Part shown: positions 88 to 9,145 of the stretch, one piece after another
Numbering within the stretch: position 1 is the first letter of the stretch
How the letters are laid out: the number at the start of each line of letters is the position of its first letter
Origin: a bacterium
Lineage (GTDB): Bacteria > UBA8248
Length of the DNA: 64,000 bases
Reading direction: 5' to 3'
Assembly: GCA_965219955.1 (NCBI GenBank)
Contig: OZ244799.1
Coordinates: 32,001-96,000 of the forward strand
The notes under the pieces: generated by a model
What the model was told of the DNA's origin: nothing
The model's database searches: none
What the model saw: only the letters and a program-made list of their open reading frames with translations
Position numbers and translations under genes: made by a program

Positions 88-1059
88 ATGAGGAAATCCA
101 CGCTTCGGCTGATTACGTTGGCGGCAGGTCTTGCCCTTCTGATCGGCACTGCCCCGACGGCGAACGCAGCCAAAATACTCATGGGAACATCCCAGCCCGG
201 CGGCGCCACCTTTGAAATCGGGACCGCGATGGGCAAAGTCATCACGGATAATTCGGGCGGAAAGATCCAAGTGGAAACATCCGTCACCGGCGGTTCTACC
301 GCAAACGTCCGAATCCTCCAGAAGAAGGACAAGAACCAGGCCTTGCGTATAGGTATGGCCACCGCACCTGCTGTCTCTTGGGGGCAAACAGGTAGAAAAC
401 CCTTCAAGAAACCCCAAGACGTATTGGCGTTAGGGGCCCTGTACCCATTGACGACCGTCTACACCACCTTTAAGACCACCGGAATCAAAAAATGGTCCGA
501 TCTCACCGGCAAAAGATTCGTCGTTGGCGGTCGTGGAGGTTCCATTTACATCGTTACACAGCTTGCACTCAAACACAGCGGCGTAAAAGCGAAAAAAGAA
601 TTCTTCAACAACAACCAGAATTCGGCCGCCATCAAAGACCAAAGGGTGGACGCAGGCTTTTTCTTCCTGAACGCGAATGTTCCCGCACCCGTATATATGG
701 ATCTCGCTCGCACACTCTCGGGCAAACTCCATTTCTTCGGTCCTGATGAGGCCACAATCAAAAAGCTGGCCGTCAACGAAGCGGGTATCGTACGCGATGT
801 CGTGGCTGCCGGCTCCATCCCGGGTTACAACAAAGATGTCGTAAGCTGGGGACAGATGTGGACTTTGATGACCAACAGCAAAATGAGCAATGCCAACGCA
901 TACGGGCTCGTCAAGGCCCTGTACGACAATCACAAACAAATCACCAAATACCATCCAACCGGGAGATACGTTACGAAAAAGACCGGCCTTCGCGGGATGA
1001 AGAAACTCAAAATCCACCCGGGTGCGGCACGCTACTGGAAAGAGGCGGGCATGATGTAA
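88..1059 (+). CDS. TAXI family TRAP transporter solute-binding protein
   Basis: Signal peptide; GTSQPGG, TGGSTAN and IHPGAARYW motifs typical of TAXI SBPs; AGGAG RBS. Confidence 0.9.
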   Translation: MRKSTLRLITLAAGLALLIGTAPTANAAKILMGTSQPGGATFEIGTAMGKVITDNSGGKIQVETSVTGGSTANVRILQKKDKNQALRIGMATAPAVSWGQTGRKPFKKPQDVLALGALYPLTTVYTTFKTTGIKKWSDLTGKRFVVGGRGGSIYIVTQLALKHSGVKAKKEFFNNNQNSAAIKDQRVDAGFFFLNANVPAPVYMDLARTLSGKLHFFGPDEATIKKLAVNEAGIVRDVVAAGSIPGYNKDVVSWGQMWTLMTNSKMSNANAYGLVKALYDNHKQITKYHPTGRYVTKKTGLRGMKKLKIHPGAARYWKEAGMM

Positions 1060-2346: not shown

Positions 2347-4305
2347 GTGCCGGAATCCAAGAATTTGATGAAAATGATAAAGATCGACAAATCCTTTCCG
2401 GGTGTTCATGCGCTCAAAGAGGTCGATTTCGATCTCGAAGAAGGCGAAGTCCATATATTACTGGGTGAAAACGGAGCCGGAAAATCCACGCTCATCAAAA
2501 TTCTAGCGGGAATTTATCACGCCGACTCAGGTCAAATCGAGATCAACGAATCGCCTACAATAATTCCCGACGCCAGAACCGGTCGCGATTTGGGAATCAG
2601 CGTCATCTACCAGGAACTGAACCTGGTGCCCGATCTGAGTGTGGCCAAAAACATCTTTCTTGGTCGCGAGCCAGTTTTGCCCGGCGTCATGAGACGCGTG
2701 GATTGGGCCAAAGTCGAACAGGAATCCCGTGCGATCATGGAGCGCCTGGATGTGAGAATCGACGTCAACGCGCCGGTCCGCTCTCTGAGCGTGGCCGATC
2801 AGCAAATGGTGGAGATCGCCCGGGCCCTCGCATTTGATTGCAAGATTTTGGTGATGGATGAACCCACGTCTTCTTTGAGCGGCCATGAAATCGAGGAACT
2901 CTTCAAGGCAGTCAACCGTTTGCGGGAACAAGGCGTCGGCATCATCTATATTTCCCACCGACTTGAAGAAGTCCACGAGATTGGAGATCGCGTTACCGTT
3001 CTGCGCGACGGGGAATACATGGGTACATGGGAAGTAAAAGATGTGGAACTCGATTTCCTGATCACACAGATGGTGGGACGCACACTCGATGAGAAATTCC
3101 CCTGGTCGCCCCGTGATCGTGGAGAAGTGGCATTGCGGGTGCGTGGACTCACCCGAAACGGCGCATTCGAAGACATTAATTTTGATCTCCATTATGGCGA
3201 AATCGTCGGCCTCTCGGGTCTCGTCGGCGCGGGAAGAACCGAAGTGGCTCGGGCCGTGATGGGCGCGGATCCTGTTGATGACGGCACCGTCGAGATGACC
3301 AACGCGACAAAAGAGAAAGAAGAGATACAAAAACTACCCCACTATCCGATTTGGGTGGCGCTCGTTGATGTGGTTGTCTTTATCCTGGCTTTGCCTTTGT
3401 TCACCGTCATCTTCCAGGGAATTTACGATCCTTTCACGCTCAACATGAACTCGCCACCACCACTTTTCAGTGGAAATTGGTTTTATGAATGGATCCTTGG
3501 TGGCCCGTTATACAACATTCCGAACGGCCCCACTCCCTATCTTGTCGCCGCCGGATTGGCCGTCATAAGACAATTGGGACTTTGGTTTCTTGAGCGTCAG
3601 TATCGTTGGCGTACTCTGGCTATTGACTTTGCAAGCTGGTACGCCCTGGCGATAGGAGCGATGGTCATTACGAGTTTATTTACCCAAAATTTCATTCTCG
3701 AATGGGTCATGATCTGGGGTGGCGTCGCTATGGTTGTCCTTCGATTCCTGACAATCCTCACCCATGAGCGCAAGTGGACTCCAACCTTGGCCATACGACG
3801 CGGGTTGGGGCTACTGCCCGAAGACAGAAAGACCCAGGGCCTCACCCAGGTCCTATCGGTTGCCTTTAACACCACTAGCGCAAACCTTCGCCGCCTCATC
3901 AAGCGATGGCTGCTCAATCTGACCATGGAGAAAGACTTCGTCGATGAGCATATCGATCAACTAAAAATCATGACGCCGGACCAGGAGACGCAAATACGCT
4001 TTCTCTCGGGCGGTAATCAGCAAAAAGTCGTACTCGCAAAATGGCTCTTCAGGCGCGCCAACGTACTCATCTTTGATGAACCGACTCGCGGAATCGACGT
4101 AGGCGCGAAATTCGAAGTTCACACACAGATGCTGCAACTCGCCAAAGATGGCGCAGCTGTAATGATGATATCGAGTGAACTGCCCGAGATTCTCGGGATG
4201 AGCGATCGCATTCTGGTCATGCGTGAAGGACGGCTCACCGCAGACATCGACAGGGATGAAGCAACGCAGGAAGGAATTCTGCGTTACGCCATGACCGCGG
4301 ATTGA
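2347..4305 (+). CDS. Sugar ABC transporter ATP-binding protein (RbsA/MglA type) with internal membrane-domain insertion
   Basis: GENGAGKS Walker A, MDEPT, GLVGAGRTE, LSGGNQQKV, FDEPTRGIDVGAK; hydrophobic insert at about aa 319-476. Confidence 0.9.
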   Translation: MPESKNLMKMIKIDKSFPGVHALKEVDFDLEEGEVHILLGENGAGKSTLIKILAGIYHADSGQIEINESPTIIPDARTGRDLGISVIYQELNLVPDLSVAKNIFLGREPVLPGVMRRVDWAKVEQESRAIMERLDVRIDVNAPVRSLSVADQQMVEIARALAFDCKILVMDEPTSSLSGHEIEELFKAVNRLREQGVGIIYISHRLEEVHEIGDRVTVLRDGEYMGTWEVKDVELDFLITQMVGRTLDEKFPWSPRDRGEVALRVRGLTRNGAFEDINFDLHYGEIVGLSGLVGAGRTEVARAVMGADPVDDGTVEMTNATKEKEEIQKLPHYPIWVALVDVVVFILALPLFTVIFQGIYDPFTLNMNSPPPLFSGNWFYEWILGGPLYNIPNGPTPYLVAAGLAVIRQLGLWFLERQYRWRTLAIDFASWYALAIGAMVITSLFTQNFILEWVMIWGGVAMVVLRFLTILTHERKWTPTLAIRRGLGLLPEDRKTQGLTQVLSVAFNTTSANLRRLIKRWLLNLTMEKDFVDEHIDQLKIMTPDQETQIRFLSGGNQQKVVLAKWLFRRANVLIFDEPTRGIDVGAKFEVHTQMLQLAKDGAAVMMISSELPEILGMSDRILVMREGRLTADIDRDEATQEGILRYAMTAD

Positions 4306-4327: not shown

Positions 4328-5341
4328 ATGAGTGCCGCAGCTTCAACGGATACTGAGAAAGTCTTTCTAGGTTATTCTGTCAAGGATATCCCCTGGGAGC
4401 GGGTACTCCTCATTTCCGCGTTTGTCGTCTTGATGATCTTCTACACTTTCGCGACCGAAAATTTCCTCACCCTCGAAAACTTCGTGAACGTCGTGCGCCG
4501 AGACGCATGGCTCTTCTTTTTGGCCTATGCCCAAACGTTGGTCATCGTTTCGGCGGGGTTCGACCTCTCGCAAGGCTCCATCATGAGCGTGGTGAGTGTC
4601 ATGGCCTGGAGTGCGATGCTGCACTTCGGGTTTTTTGTTGGCCTCATCGCCGGCCTCGGTATCGGTCTGCTGTGCGGCGTCATCAATGGGTTTTTCGTCG
4701 GCGTGGCAAGGGTGCAGCCGTTCATCGCGACCCTGGGGATGCTCTTCATCGGCAGCGGCGCGGCCCAGCTTTGGACCGGCGGCCTTCAAATGGGGGGTGC
4801 GCGCGAGGGCGCAACCTTGCCCAAACACGTCGAAGATGCTTATGTCCTTTTGGCTAAAGGAAACCTGGGTCCCATCCCCTTCACCTTCATCTGGATACTC
4901 ATCGCACTGGGCACCATGTGGTATCTGCTCAAATACACCCGCTTCGGCACTTATGTGTATGCTTTGGGCGGAAACGAACAAACAGCGATTTCCGCGGGAA
5001 TCAACTTTCCCGCCATGAAGATCGCCATTTTCGGCATAGGCGGTCTTCTGTGCGGTTTCGCAGGGCTTCTTCTTTCAGCGAGCGTCAGCGCGGCGGGCGA
5101 ACCGAGACTGGGCGGAGGCGATCAACTGCTCCAATCGATCGGAGCGACCATCATCGGCGGCACGCATATATTTGGCGGTCGAGGGGGCGTGTTGGGTACG
5201 ACGCTGGGTGTTTTTCTGATCATATTCTTGGTGAATGGACTGAACATCATGGGAATCGACACCTACCGGCAACAAATCGTCGTCGGCTTGGTAATTCTTG
5301 CTTCCATCTGGGTCAGCACCCTGCGTGAGCAAAAAAACTAA
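4328..5341 (+). CDS. Sugar ABC transporter permease (RbsC type)
   Basis: GFDLSQGS, PFIATLG, YALGGNEQTA, IIGGT motifs; multiple TM segments. Confidence 0.9.
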   Translation: MSAAASTDTEKVFLGYSVKDIPWERVLLISAFVVLMIFYTFATENFLTLENFVNVVRRDAWLFFLAYAQTLVIVSAGFDLSQGSIMSVVSVMAWSAMLHFGFFVGLIAGLGIGLLCGVINGFFVGVARVQPFIATLGMLFIGSGAAQLWTGGLQMGGAREGATLPKHVEDAYVLLAKGNLGPIPFTFIWILIALGTMWYLLKYTRFGTYVYALGGNEQTAISAGINFPAMKIAIFGIGGLLCGFAGLLLSASVSAAGEPRLGGGDQLLQSIGATIIGGTHIFGGRGGVLGTTLGVFLIIFLVNGLNIMGIDTYRQQIVVGLVILASIWVSTLREQKN

Positions 5342-5356
5342 GGGAGATTCTAAATC

Positions 5357-6352
5357 ATGGCGAATGTAGCGGAGGTTCCGGTCAGACCTTCTGCCTCCTT
5401 ATTGGCCAAATTCAATTACGAAAAATATGGTTTACTCGTCGTGTTCATCTTGATGATGGTCATATTTTACATTCTCCAATTGATGGGCTACGTGAACAAC
5501 TTTATCGAAGCCCATAACCTGACCAACCAACTCAGAAACGCTTCTCTCCTGTTCTTCATCGTTGCTGGGCAAAGTATGGTGCTCCTGGTTTCAGGCATCG
5601 ATTTGAGCCAAGGTTCCTTGCTCAGCCTCTCGAGCGTCGTGATGGCGCAGGGCATACTGGATTTTGGCCTTGCCGTGGGCGTGTTGATGGGTATCGGAAT
5701 GGCGACGATGTTCGGTTTCATCAACGGCTACCTCGTGGGCCGCGTGAAAATACAACCTTTCATTGTCACCTTGAGTATGCTTTTCATCTGCGCCGGCATC
5801 GCGTTGGTATTCACGGGCGGACGCACTATTCATCAATTCACGAGTGAGCAAAAAGATATCCTGCAAACCATCGGCCTCACGGATTTTTTCCACATCCCCG
5901 GCACGCTGTTCATCGCCATTTTCTTTTTCATCATTCTCTATCTGCTGACGAAACGAACGGTGCTTGGCCGGGCAATTTATTTAACCGGCGGGAACGAAGA
6001 GGCCGCGCGCCTCTCTGGTATAGACACTGGCAAGGTGAAACTCATTTGCTATTTGATCAGCGGCATCTGCGTGGGCATCACCTCGTTCCTTTACCTGGCG
6101 AGACTTCCGGCCACGAACGGCCTCGCGGGGTTTCAGCTTGAATTCCAGTCCCTGGCGGCCACTGTGGTGGGAGGCACGACGTTCCACGGCGGCGAGGGCG
6201 GTGTGACGCAAGCCGCGATCGGGACGCTTTTCCTGACATTTTTGCTCAATGGCCTCATTCTCCTGGGTGTGGGCACATTCGCCCGGGAGGTGGTGGTAGG
6301 CGTTTTGCTGATTACGGCTGTGGTTTTGAGTTCCCGCAAGCGGCGGGAATAG
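5357..6352 (+). CDS. Sugar ABC transporter permease (RbsC type)
   Basis: GIDLSQGS, PFIVTL, GGNEEAARLSGI motifs. Confidence 0.9.
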   Translation: MANVAEVPVRPSASLLAKFNYEKYGLLVVFILMMVIFYILQLMGYVNNFIEAHNLTNQLRNASLLFFIVAGQSMVLLVSGIDLSQGSLLSLSSVVMAQGILDFGLAVGVLMGIGMATMFGFINGYLVGRVKIQPFIVTLSMLFICAGIALVFTGGRTIHQFTSEQKDILQTIGLTDFFHIPGTLFIAIFFFIILYLLTKRTVLGRAIYLTGGNEEAARLSGIDTGKVKLICYLISGICVGITSFLYLARLPATNGLAGFQLEFQSLAATVVGGTTFHGGEGGVTQAAIGTLFLTFLLNGLILLGVGTFAREVVVGVLLITAVVLSSRKRRE

Positions 6353-6441
6353 GAAATATGTTTATACTGTAGTCATTTTTCCCTTTCGCGGAGGAGAGAA
6401 TATCCGTCCGTGAAACCCATTCTGCGACGAGGAGATTCACG

Positions 6442-7500
6442 ATGAAAAAAATGTTCCGCACTTTCATGATCCTCGCTTCCGTCGTCACGTTCATGTTCGT
6501 GTCGATGGCGGCGACCCCGGACGCCGATGCCCGGGTGAAGGCGAAGAAGAAATACAAGATCGCTGTCGTCGTGCCCAATGGAGTCGACCCCTATTTCTTC
6601 TCGAAATGGTACGGAAGCGTACAGGCGGCCAAGGAAGCCGGCGTGACCGTGACCATGTTCGACGCGGGCGGCTATGAGTTCCTGCCCAAACAGGTGGCCC
6701 ACGTGGAAGACATCATCGCGGCGAAATACGACGGAATGATCATCTGCCCCATCAGTACCAAGGGCATGGTGAACGCCGTCCATAAGGCGATGGACAAAGG
6801 CGTCAAGATCGTCGTGGACAACATCGACCTCGACAGCAATCGCGTCAAGAACCGCGTCATGAAAAACAGCTACGAGCTGGGCCTTCTCATCGGCGCTACC
6901 ATGGCGCACGCCATCAACTACCAGGGCAAAGTCATGATGCTGCCCGGACCCAGCGGCATCGAGATGGTGACCTCCATGGCCAAAGGGTTTGAGGAGTACA
7001 TGAGCCACTACCCGAAAATCAAGATTGTGGCCAAGGAATTCACCAAGTCCAACGTGCAGCATGCATACCAGACGGCGGAAGACCTGCTTAAGAAACATCC
7101 GGATGTGAAAGGCATTTACCCCTGGGCAACGCTCATTGCCCGCGGCACGGTGGACGCCGTGAAAGCCGCCGGTTACAAGCCCGGTCAGATCAAGATCGTG
7201 ACGCACAACCTCGTCGTCGGAATCGAAAAAGACATTCGTGACGGCTGGGTGCACGCGGCGGTCTTGGCCGAGCAGATCGCGATGGCGAGAGAAGCTGTTT
7301 TCAACGTAATCGATCTCATCGAAGGACGCCAGCCTCCGGGCGCGCCCCATCGCGGCGGAACGCTCAGCTATATCCAGAATTACATGGCCTATAAGCACAA
7401 CCTCGACATTCTGGATCGAAGCGGCATCGAGGCGCCCAAAGATTGGATGATCAAGCGCCAGAAACGCGCGGCGAACATCGTGGGCGGAAAACGCCGTTAA
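6442..7500 (+). CDS. Sugar ABC transporter periplasmic substrate-binding protein
   Basis: Signal peptide; periplasmic binding protein type I pattern (DPYF, AKEAGV, DLLKKHPDVKGIY); operon context. Confidence 0.88.
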   Translation: MKKMFRTFMILASVVTFMFVSMAATPDADARVKAKKKYKIAVVVPNGVDPYFFSKWYGSVQAAKEAGVTVTMFDAGGYEFLPKQVAHVEDIIAAKYDGMIICPISTKGMVNAVHKAMDKGVKIVVDNIDLDSNRVKNRVMKNSYELGLLIGATMAHAINYQGKVMMLPGPSGIEMVTSMAKGFEEYMSHYPKIKIVAKEFTKSNVQHAYQTAEDLLKKHPDVKGIYPWATLIARGTVDAVKAAGYKPGQIKIVTHNLVVGIEKDIRDGWVHAAVLAEQIAMAREAVFNVIDLIEGRQPPGAPHRGGTLSYIQNYMAYKHNLDILDRSGIEAPKDWMIKRQKRAANIVGGKRR

Positions 7501-7522: not shown

Positions 7523-7557
7523 CAAAAGCCCCGCCGGGCAACCGGCGGGGTTTTTTC
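7523..7557. terminator. Bidirectional Rho-independent terminator
   Basis: AAAAGCCCCGCCGG-GCAA-CCGGCGGGGTTTTTT between convergent genes. Confidence 0.85.
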
Positions 7558-7576: not shown

Positions 7577-8659
7577 CTACAACCCCTTCACGTATATGCT
7601 GAGCCCCATCCGCCCCGTCGACCCACCGGGTTGCGGATCGGAAATCTCATCCGTCTGCACTTTTCCTGCGCCATCCACGGCTCGCACCGTCGCCGGATAA
7701 AACCCGTTTTCCTCAAAATGCATGGGAAACGCCCAGACGCTCCAGGCGAGCGGCCCCAGGGGCTTTTTGAGCAGTGCAGGCGCCCAGGACCGCAAACGCT
7801 CACCCTGCCCATAGGTTACTTCCACCTTGCGGATTCCCCTGTCCCCGGCGAAAGCCGAGCCCACGAGCCACACCTTGGAAGTCCGGACCTCAACACGCCT
7901 CCTGGGGGCTTCGAAGCGGCTGAGCGTCTCGACGATTGCCTCATCCGACCACCCCCGCTTTTGCCAATACCCGCCATGTCCCCTGGTCGCAACCTCAATG
8001 GATTCAATCCACTTCACGTTCTTGAGGCCGTAGGTCCCCGGCACGAGGAGCCTGAGCGGAGCGCCGTGGTCTCTTGGCAAGGATTCCCCGTTCATCCTGG
8101 TGCACAGAAGCGTTCTCGAATCGAGGGCCTGCTCCAGGGAGATGGAATCATGATACCCGTCCGCCGCGCGAAAAATCACCCGGGCGGAGACAGAGCGGCG
8201 CACGTTTTTCGCCACGCCCGCCCGCTCGATGAGCGTTGTAAGCGGTATCCCTTCCCACAAGGCGTTCCCTATCTGCCCGCCGCCCACGGGGTTCCCGATG
8301 CAGGTCATCGTCGCCCAGGTTCGCTCCTGCCCGAGCGCGCTCAATTCCGCATAAGTAGCGGAAAAAGGCTCTGTTACCTCGCCCGTTATTTTCAGCCGCC
8401 ATTTACCGCGGGAGAGCCTGGGTGCCGAATGGCCGATGCTTTGCACATAAAATTTATCGTTCGCGGTGACTTCGGGAACGACGCGCGCGGCGAAATCGAG
8501 AATTCCCTCACCGGGCCCGGGCGTCTCGACGGGGCGGCTGTTCAGCCAATCGAACAGGCGGCCCGCCATCGAGGCCTGAGCGTCGCGCGGGATTCCGATG
8601 ACGGCGAGGGGCGCGATTCGCCCCGCAATCCGCAATAGCTGGCGTCTGGATACGTTCAT
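7577..8659 (-). CDS. Tat-exported molybdopterin-dependent oxidoreductase (sulfite oxidase family)
   Basis: SRRQLL Tat motif; TMTCIGNP Mo-ligand Cys; MNGESLPRDHGAPLRL and YGLKNVKW motifs; GGAG RBS before ATG 8659. Confidence 0.88.
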   Translation of the reverse strand: MNVSRRQLLRIAGRIAPLAVIGIPRDAQASMAGRLFDWLNSRPVETPGPGEGILDFAARVVPEVTANDKFYVQSIGHSAPRLSRGKWRLKITGEVTEPFSATYAELSALGQERTWATMTCIGNPVGGGQIGNALWEGIPLTTLIERAGVAKNVRRSVSARVIFRAADGYHDSISLEQALDSRTLLCTRMNGESLPRDHGAPLRLLVPGTYGLKNVKWIESIEVATRGHGGYWQKRGWSDEAIVETLSRFEAPRRRVEVRTSKVWLVGSAFAGDRGIRKVEVTYGQGERLRSWAPALLKKPLGPLAWSVWAFPMHFEENGFYPATVRAVDGAGKVQTDEISDPQPGGSTGRMGLSIYVKGL

Positions 8660-9145
8660 GGCGCTTCTCCAGGAGAAAACCACCCCCGATTCTACGATAA
8701 AACCGCCGATTCACGAAATTTCCGCCCCTCACCCCCGCATCTTCCCGCAAATCCGCGCATTTTCCGTCATCGCAAGCGTAGCGCGCCGTGGCATTATTCC
8801 CCTGCACCCGGATTCCGCGGCGTCAAACCCTAAGAAAATAATTCCCGGAAATACCCCGTCAATTTATCGAAAAACCCCGTGAATTTATCCAATTTTATCG
8901 AAATTTACGGAAATTCCATTTTCTCGAACGAAACCGCCCGGCTTCGCCATCATACCGGAATCCCCCGAATCCGCGCGGACGGCAGATGCGGGCAAATGCG
9001 GGTTGTCTCGAACGGGATGCAGGGAATTTCGTCCGGACCCCGGGAGGAAGTGATGAACGCTCCGCCGCAAATGCGGGGAAATGCGCGCCCCCGTGCGAGG
9101 GATGAAGACCCGGCCGGAGGGTGCGGAATCGAACCCGGCCGATGC

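Follow-up and report, generated by a model that had tools for sequence, protein, structure and literature searches.

A predicted membrane domain nested in the second nucleotide-binding domain of a CUT2-type ABC importer ATPase from marine Nitrospinota

The DNA analyzed here is a window of 64,000 nucleotides from a bacterial genome (positions 32,001 to 96,000 of contig OZ244799.1, assembly GCA_965219955.1), near the start of which lies a gene for the ATPase of an ATP-binding cassette (ABC) importer of the CUT2/RbsA kind. The gene is a single open reading frame (2347..4305) that starts with GTG, where the orthologues have ATG at the same site, and it encodes a protein of 652 amino acids with two nucleotide-binding domains (NBDs). 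Inside the second of these, about 158 residues (318-475, nucleotides 3298-3771) are predicted to form a membrane module. Positions are those of the window, and all features are on the plus strand unless stated otherwise. In textbook ABC importers the ATPases are soluble and detachable, and contact the membrane only via the coupling helices of the permeases. We favor the hypothesis that the nested module is a third membrane element that acts on the transporter and on one of its ATP sites, a package to which, taken as a whole, we give a probability of about 0.55; the architecture is far more certain than the mechanism.

A membrane domain would here be threaded through an NBD between the Walker A motif and the Q-loop, with the ATPase motifs intact, and the NBD fold would thus tolerate a co-translationally inserted membrane module in mid-domain. 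Such a protein offers a natural test case for the question of whether the degenerate ATP site of the CUT2 importers is regulatory, and it may reveal a direct path of communication from the periplasm to the NBD.

Position of the insert and integrity of the ATPase

The insert stands in place of a 9-residue beta-hairpin, flanked by the strand downstream of the Walker A helix and by the short helix that precedes the PEDRK motif. Its borders were set at residues 318 and 475 by comparison with the closest insert-less relatives, in which 9 residues occupy this site, and the net gain is about 149 amino acids. A first, sequence-only reading of this DNA had placed the insert at 3292-3780, which is right to within two or three codons. 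Counted from the insertion site, the Walker A motif of NBD2 is 19 residues upstream, and the Glu of PEDRK, which marks the Q-loop position, is 17 residues downstream. The equivalent segment of NBD1 is an ordinary hairpin in the full-length AlphaFold2 (AF2) model, with strands at residues 61-66 and 69-70. Homologs lacking the insert have 496-524 amino acids. One of them, in genome G012, is 58% identical over residues 7-317 and 64% identical over residues 475-650, and a metagenomic group of such proteins (P0024; 514-518 amino acids) shows 55-58% identity.

NBD1 (residues ~1-250, 2347..3096) has a canonical Walker A motif with Lys, a Q-loop Gln, a Walker B motif and an H-loop His, together with a degenerate signature, and is modeled at a predicted local distance difference test score (pLDDT) of 80-93. 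NBD2 is split in two. Its N-terminal piece (residues ~251-317, 3097..3297) contains beta strands, a Walker A motif with Arg for Lys, helix 1 and the next strand, and its C-terminal piece (residues 476-652, 3772..4305) contains a helix, the PEDRK motif at the Q-loop position, a canonical signature, a Walker B motif, a Ser at the H-loop position and the stop codon. In an alignment of 40 sequences, insert-bearing and insert-less proteins taken together, the invariant residues in NBD1 are the Walker A Lys46, Gln89, Asp171-Glu172 and His204. Those in NBD2 are the Walker A Arg297, Pro491-Glu492, the signature with Ser554-Gly-Gly and Gln-Gln-Lys, Asp577-Glu578, and Ser609-Ser610 at the H-loop position. 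The motifs are thus intact on either side of the insert, as the sequence-only reading had held. The ATPase is likely still working, because the motif residues are invariant with and without the insert and the two NBDs are modeled at a pLDDT of 80-94.

PMC11466899 describes RbsA/NupO as having one degenerate ATP site and models such systems as type II importers. The Arg-for-Lys exchange in the second Walker A motif and the degeneracy of the first signature match the degenerate-site pattern given there. The insert, being part of NBD2, thus shares a domain with the P-loop of the non-canonical site.

Family assignment and operon

The Pfam domain ABC_tran (PF00005) matches the ATPase at an expectation value (E) of 1.1e-47 in three stretches because the insert splits NBD2, and the region 3292-3780 is left empty. 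The best NCBIfam models are AraG (548.7 bits), RbsA (517), XylG (513.8) and MglA (482), each of which matches in two stretches, with a break near residue 310-325 and a later resumption. Among the named equivalogs that were considered (AraG, RbsA, XylG, MglA, AlsA, YtfR and LsrA), the score is below every curated NCBIfam cut-off (689 for AraG, 745 for RbsA, 699 for XylG and 828 for MglA), and therefore no substrate can be assigned. The cargo of CUT2 members is monosaccharides, according to a review (PMC13543919).

The ATPase gene is followed by genes for permease 1 (4328..5341, 337 amino acids), permease 2 (5357..6352, 331 amino acids) and a periplasmic substrate-binding protein (6442..7500, 352 amino acids). 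Both permeases belong to BPD_transp_2 according to Pfam. Permease 1 matches the RbsC profile nearly from end to end, so that no helix is missing. The binding protein belongs to Peripla_BP_4, begins with a hydrophobic, signal-like segment, and has as its PDB matches only generic sugar binders of the CUT2 type (best E 1e-20). Its best model is TorT, the periplasmic protein of a trimethylamine N-oxide sensor, at 106 bits against a cut-off of 200. An ATPase accompanied by two BPD_transp_2 permeases and a Peripla_BP_4 binding protein identifies the locus as a CUT2-type importer operon. The ATPase itself has the family's two ABC_tran cassettes in one chain, one degenerate ATP site, and permease and binding-protein neighbors, yet it departs from the soluble type of about 500 amino acids without a membrane span in its 652 amino acids and in the four hydropathy peaks over residues 335-472. 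By its sequence, motifs and operon, we consider that it descends from the CUT2 tandem ATPases and works like them.

Distribution and selection

The source genome is a single contig of 4.28 Mb with an estimated completeness of 94% and contamination of 5%, and it contains the insert in one copy. Four other tandem ATPases in the same genome lack the insert; these have open frames of 535-550 amino acids and 34-48% identity. A search of 5.8 billion proteins with the insert region returned 20 matches at E <= 0.001 among 707 candidates, with identities of 59-92%. Seventeen of these proteins have 643-670 amino acids and the other three are truncated gene calls; two carry NCBI names that point to the Nitrospinota.

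The insert was found in 27 of 51 genomes of this phylum, and in 16 of the 29 with a completeness of 90% or more and a contamination of 5% or less. Leaving aside the source genome, it is present in 21 of 22 genomes of genus g1, in the single genome of genus g6 and in 4 of 5 genomes of genus g9, and in none from the other 12 genera. Wherever it occurs there is one copy, in an open frame of 628-710 amino acids free of stop codons. The insert is thus restricted to a handful of Nitrospinota genera, which are marine and associated with sponges and corals.

Only two genomes in the carrier genera are without the insert. In G048 (genus g9), which is 97% complete, no match to the ATPase was obtained at E <= 1e-30, which suggests a loss of this gene, perhaps along with the rest of the operon. 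G020 (genus g1) is 79% complete, and the absence may be due to this incompleteness.

In all 23 loci that were fetched, the insert aligns without gaps at 64-94% identity, and the order ATPase, permease, permease and binding protein is complete in 22 of them; the remaining locus (L048) is cut by the end of its contig. In another locus (L056, contig G049:C539, ATPase at ~4938-6536 on the minus strand), the ATPase has a frame of 628 amino acids; its alignment contains 6 gaps and ends at residue 532, and its insert is intact. A frameshift or an assembly error may account for the deviation, or the C-terminus may be a variant one.

Contigs from other samples cross the two junctions with 31 or more bases to either side: two contigs from a coral metagenome (X12 records 1 and 2) and one from a metatranscriptome (X20 record 14) at the 5' junction, and two contigs from a sponge metagenome (X6 records 22 and 23) at the 3' junction. 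Several other contigs cross a junction with fewer than 31 bases on one side. A further contig (X2 record 9) spans the whole insert; it may come from the source organism and so does not count as independent. A joined form without the insert was not seen among the contigs from other metagenomes and the metatranscriptome. The sequence-only reading had named misassembly as the outcome that would undo it. This is excluded, because the genome is a single contig, the insert recurs in open frames in 27 genomes, and independent contigs cross both junctions.

Selection was measured as the ratio of nonsynonymous to synonymous substitution rates (dN/dS) by the Nei-Gojobori method on 21 orthologues, using the 153 of 210 pairs with 0.1 < dS < 1.5 in all three regions. 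The median dN/dS is 0.118 for the insert, 0.054 for NBD1 and 0.050 for NBD2, and the invariant positions amount to 45%, 65% and 69%, respectively. The insert changes at roughly double the rate of the NBDs, yet it is clearly under purifying selection as a protein.

Membrane topology of the insert

Hydropathy was calculated after Kyte and Doolittle in 19-residue windows. Peaks above 1.4 are confined to the insert; the maxima elsewhere in the protein are 1.04 before it and 0.83 after it. The insert begins with a predicted cytoplasmic linker (residues 318-334, 3298..3348) that is charged and has a predicted short helix. The first predicted transmembrane helix, TM1 (335-356, 3349..3414), has the highest peak (2.78, window 337-355) and an invariant Asp341, and 8 of its 22 positions are invariant in the 28 distinct insert-bearing sequences on which all segment counts are based. 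Predicted periplasmic loop 1 (357-396, 3415..3534) is rich in Pro and aromatic residues and contains a short predicted helix; 20 of its 40 positions are invariant. Predicted TM2 (397-415, 3535..3591) has the weakest peak (1.45, over the same residues) and an invariant Arg408-Gln409 pair, with 5 of 19 positions invariant. It is followed by predicted cytoplasmic loop 2 (416-422, 3592..3612), the most variable segment (0 of 7 invariant), and by predicted TM3 (423-445, 3613..3681; peak 1.65-1.71, windows over 423-451), with an invariant Asp427 and 4 of 23 invariant positions. A short predicted periplasmic loop 3 (446-451, 3682..3699; 4 of 6 invariant) connects to predicted TM4 (452-472; peak 2.0, window 454-472), in which 6 of 21 positions are invariant, among them Glu452 and Arg466. 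A basic cytoplasmic linker of three residues (473-475; together with TM4, 3700..3771) re-enters NBD2 directly.

The predicted cytoplasmic stretches contain 3 (318-334), 3 (416-422) and 2 (473-478) Lys and Arg residues, a total of 8 versus none in either periplasmic loop, and this positive-inside distribution fits a topology of four helices with both termini inside. An even number of helices is the sole compatible parity, since both ends of the insert join a cytoplasmic NBD. AF2 prediction of the insert alone, from an alignment of 17 sequences, yielded four long helices of 20-26 residues (insert residues 18-43, 79-98, 104-128 and 134-158) and extra short helices in loop 1 and in the N-terminal linker, with a pLDDT of 72.8 and a predicted template modeling score (pTM) of 0.65 for the best model. 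The insert is thus most likely a four-helix membrane bundle with both ends in the cytoplasm. An insert that crosses the membrane four times would make the ATPase an integral membrane protein, and the membrane-anchored ATPase suggested by the sequence-only reading is well supported by hydropathy, by the positive-inside pattern and by the predicted helix lengths. About 46 residues are predicted to face the periplasm, 40 in loop 1 and 6 in loop 3.

Conservation peaks on this predicted periplasmic side, where loops 1 and 3 rank above both the helices and loop 2, which points to more than a simple anchor. Invariant charged or polar residues also occur within the helices (Asp341, Arg408-Gln409, Asp427, Glu452 and Arg466). 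Counted from the cytoplasmic helix ends, Asp341 in TM1 and Arg408 in TM2 lie at similar depths, and so do Asp427 in TM3 and Arg466 in TM4, which makes two salt bridges plausible. These may staple the hairpins TM1-TM2 and TM3-TM4 in the region of the inner leaflet.

Origin and search for relatives

A maximum-likelihood tree was inferred from 41 ATPases after removal of the insert columns. The 17 insert-bearing sequences form a single clade (ultrafast bootstrap 100; Shimodaira-Hasegawa-like approximate likelihood ratio test, SH-aLRT, 100) that is nested among proteins of about 500 amino acids, and one gain is therefore sufficient to explain their distribution.

The source of the insert left no trace in the databases searched. 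Among 1.84 billion cluster representatives, phmmer matched the insert to one cluster only, its own. A profile built from 17 insert sequences found no stand-alone match at E <= 1 among proteins of 87-279 amino acids, in a search limited to proteins that share 5-residue words, from which distant relatives may escape. Pfam contains no family for the insert, with stray matches at E 0.004-0.045 in one or two of the 17 members; the ESM Atlas gave no usable match; and Foldseek with the insert-alone model found nothing in the PDB at E <= 0.001. The best VIA-align match of this model is 8b5l_t (Z 10.5, root-mean-square deviation 5.1, 124 residues aligned), where the noise level for helical bundles is about 13. 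We rejected a kinship in fold with TRAP-gamma (Z 10.5), MATE transporters (Z 7.3) or designed repeats, since these are generic helical-bundle matches.

An origin from the neighboring permeases was also rejected (hhalign probability 0.1-0.3%), as was one from a mobile element or intein: flanking direct or inverted repeats were sought at the insert borders and not found, no Pfam domain is present, and the G+C content at third codon positions (GC3) is near that of the rest of the gene (0.551 vs 0.605). The overall G+C content of 0.487 for the insert versus 0.534 for the rest of the gene is lower, as expected of a coding sequence rich in Phe, Leu and Ile. To judge from these comparisons, the insert is an orphan membrane domain with no ancestry detectable in the searches made. 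None of the titles and abstracts searched, mostly from outside the subscription journals, reports an NBD with a membrane domain nested in it. The architecture, which the sequence-only reading did not recognize, was thus not found in the protein families, the solved structures and the literature searched.

Proposed function and alternative explanations

The sequence-only reading had also suggested that the ATPase would contribute an extra membrane module to a transporter that already has two permeases. One hypothesis is that the bundle would flank the permease heterodimer and form a third membrane element, where its conserved periplasmic face would contact the docked binding protein or the periplasmic loops of the permeases. 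Events in the membrane or the periplasm could then reach the non-canonical ATP site by a direct route and modulate the ATPase activity, and the module would additionally hold the ATPase at the transporter. TM4 re-enters NBD2 a few residues before the helix and the Q-loop position, so that a direct influence on the non-canonical site would be possible. In a more specific version, the ATPase would incorporate the module as a third, regulatory membrane subunit: the periplasmic face of the module would sense the docked binding protein or the substrate, TM4 would relay the signal to the degenerate NBD2 around its Q-loop, and hydrolysis would be gated from the periplasm in a manner that bypasses the coupling helices of the permeases. 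In this elaborated form the proposal is speculative and we consider it rather doubtful. A complex prediction for the insert with both permeases, each given as an alignment, returned a score of 0.00; the partner fold is uncertain and controls were not included, so this value counts neither way.

Several observations weigh against a third membrane element that acts on the transporter. Both permeases are full length relative to the RbsC profile, which leaves nothing obvious for a further module to complement. Four of the five insert-alone AF2 models have a mean pLDDT of only 47-53, and in the full-length model the insert has a pLDDT of 37-62, which is too low to orient the bundle relative to the NBDs. 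TM2 is only weakly hydrophobic and carries an Arg-Gln pair. A two-helix topology is thus possible, in which TM1 and TM4 would span the membrane and the middle part, as a larger periplasmic portion, would lie outside; this alternative retains the parity with both ends inside and is less likely. The signal for a variable helix face is weak, at 0.044 versus shuffles for TM4 and 0.15-0.27 for TM1-TM3, and the lipid- and protein-facing sides were not distinguished by the periodicity of variability, which is not significant for TM1-TM3. The metatranscriptome contigs indicate presence in an RNA library, and transcription is not thereby proven.

The alternative that survives best is that the bundle merely tethers the ATPase, which would raise its local concentration and stabilize the assembly with the permeases, and that it has no periplasmic or regulatory role. 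This would require nothing beyond hydrophobic helices, and it agrees with the completeness of the permeases and with a cytoplasmic loop 2 that is free to vary. A tether should however be constrained mainly in hydrophobicity, yet the periplasmic loops are the best conserved segments (20/40 and 4/6), the helices contain four charged residues that never vary, and not a single indel was observed in 23 loci despite insert identities down to 64%. We consider a plain anchor unlikely, but it is an explanation to be taken seriously.

Alternatively, the module could have a job of its own, as a sensor, a channel or an interaction platform for a partner outside the operon, with the ATPase as its scaffold. 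The lack of homology to the permeases (hhalign, as above), the failure to match any known family or fold, and the highly conserved, polar and aromatic-rich periplasmic loop are all consistent with such a role. Set against this, the module has been seen only in this ATPase (one cluster in 1.84 billion representatives; no stand-alone match among proteins of 87-279 amino acids), the same three transporter genes always lie alongside it (complete in 22 of 23 loci, the other being cut by a contig end), and the upstream genes are not conserved in more distant genera, two of them not having been found in L047 and L048. An independent role is disfavored because the module is never found apart from this ATPase and its operon, and we regard it as improbable.

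Finally, the feature could reflect an assembly error, an insertion of the mobile-element or intein type, or read-through of a pseudogene. Only the slightly lower G+C content of the insert, a shift such as Phe-, Leu- and Ile-rich coding gives, could be cited for this explanation, which is hardly credible in view of the single-contig genome, the 27 genomes with open frames, the dN/dS of 0.12, the absence of border repeats and the independent contigs across the junctions with no deletion form.

Comparison with known systems

The ATPase resembles the canonical CUT2 proteins RbsA, AraG, XylG and MglA (TC 3.A.1.2) in its two cassettes per chain, the Arg-for-Lys exchange in the second Walker A motif and the degenerate first signature, and the operon resembles theirs in its two BPD_transp_2 permeases and Peripla_BP_4 binding protein. 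The canonical ATPases are soluble proteins of about 500 amino acids, whereas the protein described here has a module of membrane type, about 158 amino acids in length, inside NBD2. The nearest insert-less relatives (the P0024 group and G012/P0038) are 55-64% identical over both NBDs and have a 9-residue hairpin at the insert site. In G012 the gene order is the same, with permeases only ~41% identical and a binding protein 38% identical. G012 may contain a paralogous system rather than the ancestral state.

The closest insert-less ATPase (L058/L049, G012:C6) has zero tree distance from P0038. The taxonomic labels of the two do not agree: NCBI assigns P0038 to Candidatus Tectomicrobia, and the G012 genome is placed in the family of the source genome.

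Half-transporters and MacB-type proteins also combine an ATPase and membrane helices in one chain, so that the ATPase cannot leave the membrane. Their NBD is continuous, and the membrane domain, attached at its N- or C-terminal side, makes up the translocation pathway. In contrast, the helices described here interrupt NBD2 between the Walker A motif and the Q-loop position, and two separate full-length permeases are present.

Among solved structures, the rank 1 Foldseek match for the full-length model is 8s7v_K, and the best matches after it are OppD (8j5q_D, E 5e-24) and DppD (8wdb_D, 1.3e-22) of M. tuberculosis, with a TMq of 0.58. OppD and DppD likewise have two NBDs in one chain, but they belong to the PepT importer family and their NBDs contain no membrane segment. 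A sequence search of the solved structures did not retrieve any CUT2 ATPase, and the best match was to the NBDs of P-glycoprotein (1e-27).

Surroundings of the operon

A G+C-rich hairpin after the binding-protein gene (7529..7550, no strand assigned) likely marks the end of the four-gene operon. Scans for promoters and terminators gave nothing above shuffled sequences except this hairpin, and a search for a riboswitch or leader upstream of the ATPase gene (1700-2500) gave no Rfam match at E <= 1. The 540-nt spacer in front of the ATPase gene (1806-2346) is richer in A+T (G+C 0.40-0.48), has no Rfam match, and contains on the minus strand an open frame of 105 codons (1845-2162) whose product has a hydrophobic N-terminus and matches no Pfam family.

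Further upstream are genes for a binding protein of the TAXI/NMT1_3 type (88-1059, +) and for a CMD-like protein (1197-1805, +), the latter a weak match to the carboxymuconolactone decarboxylase family. The TAXI/NMT1_3-type gene adjoins the operon in 18 of 18 loci from the same genus and the CMD-like gene in 16, in one of them partially; neither was found in the two more distant loci L047 and L048. Both genes are probably outside the transporter unit.

Downstream, a convergent gene on the minus strand (7577-8683) encodes a protein with a molybdopterin-binding oxidoreductase domain (Oxidored_molyb, E 1.4e-42). The 9-bp hairpin between this gene and the binding-protein gene consists entirely of G+C pairs and looks like a shared terminator.

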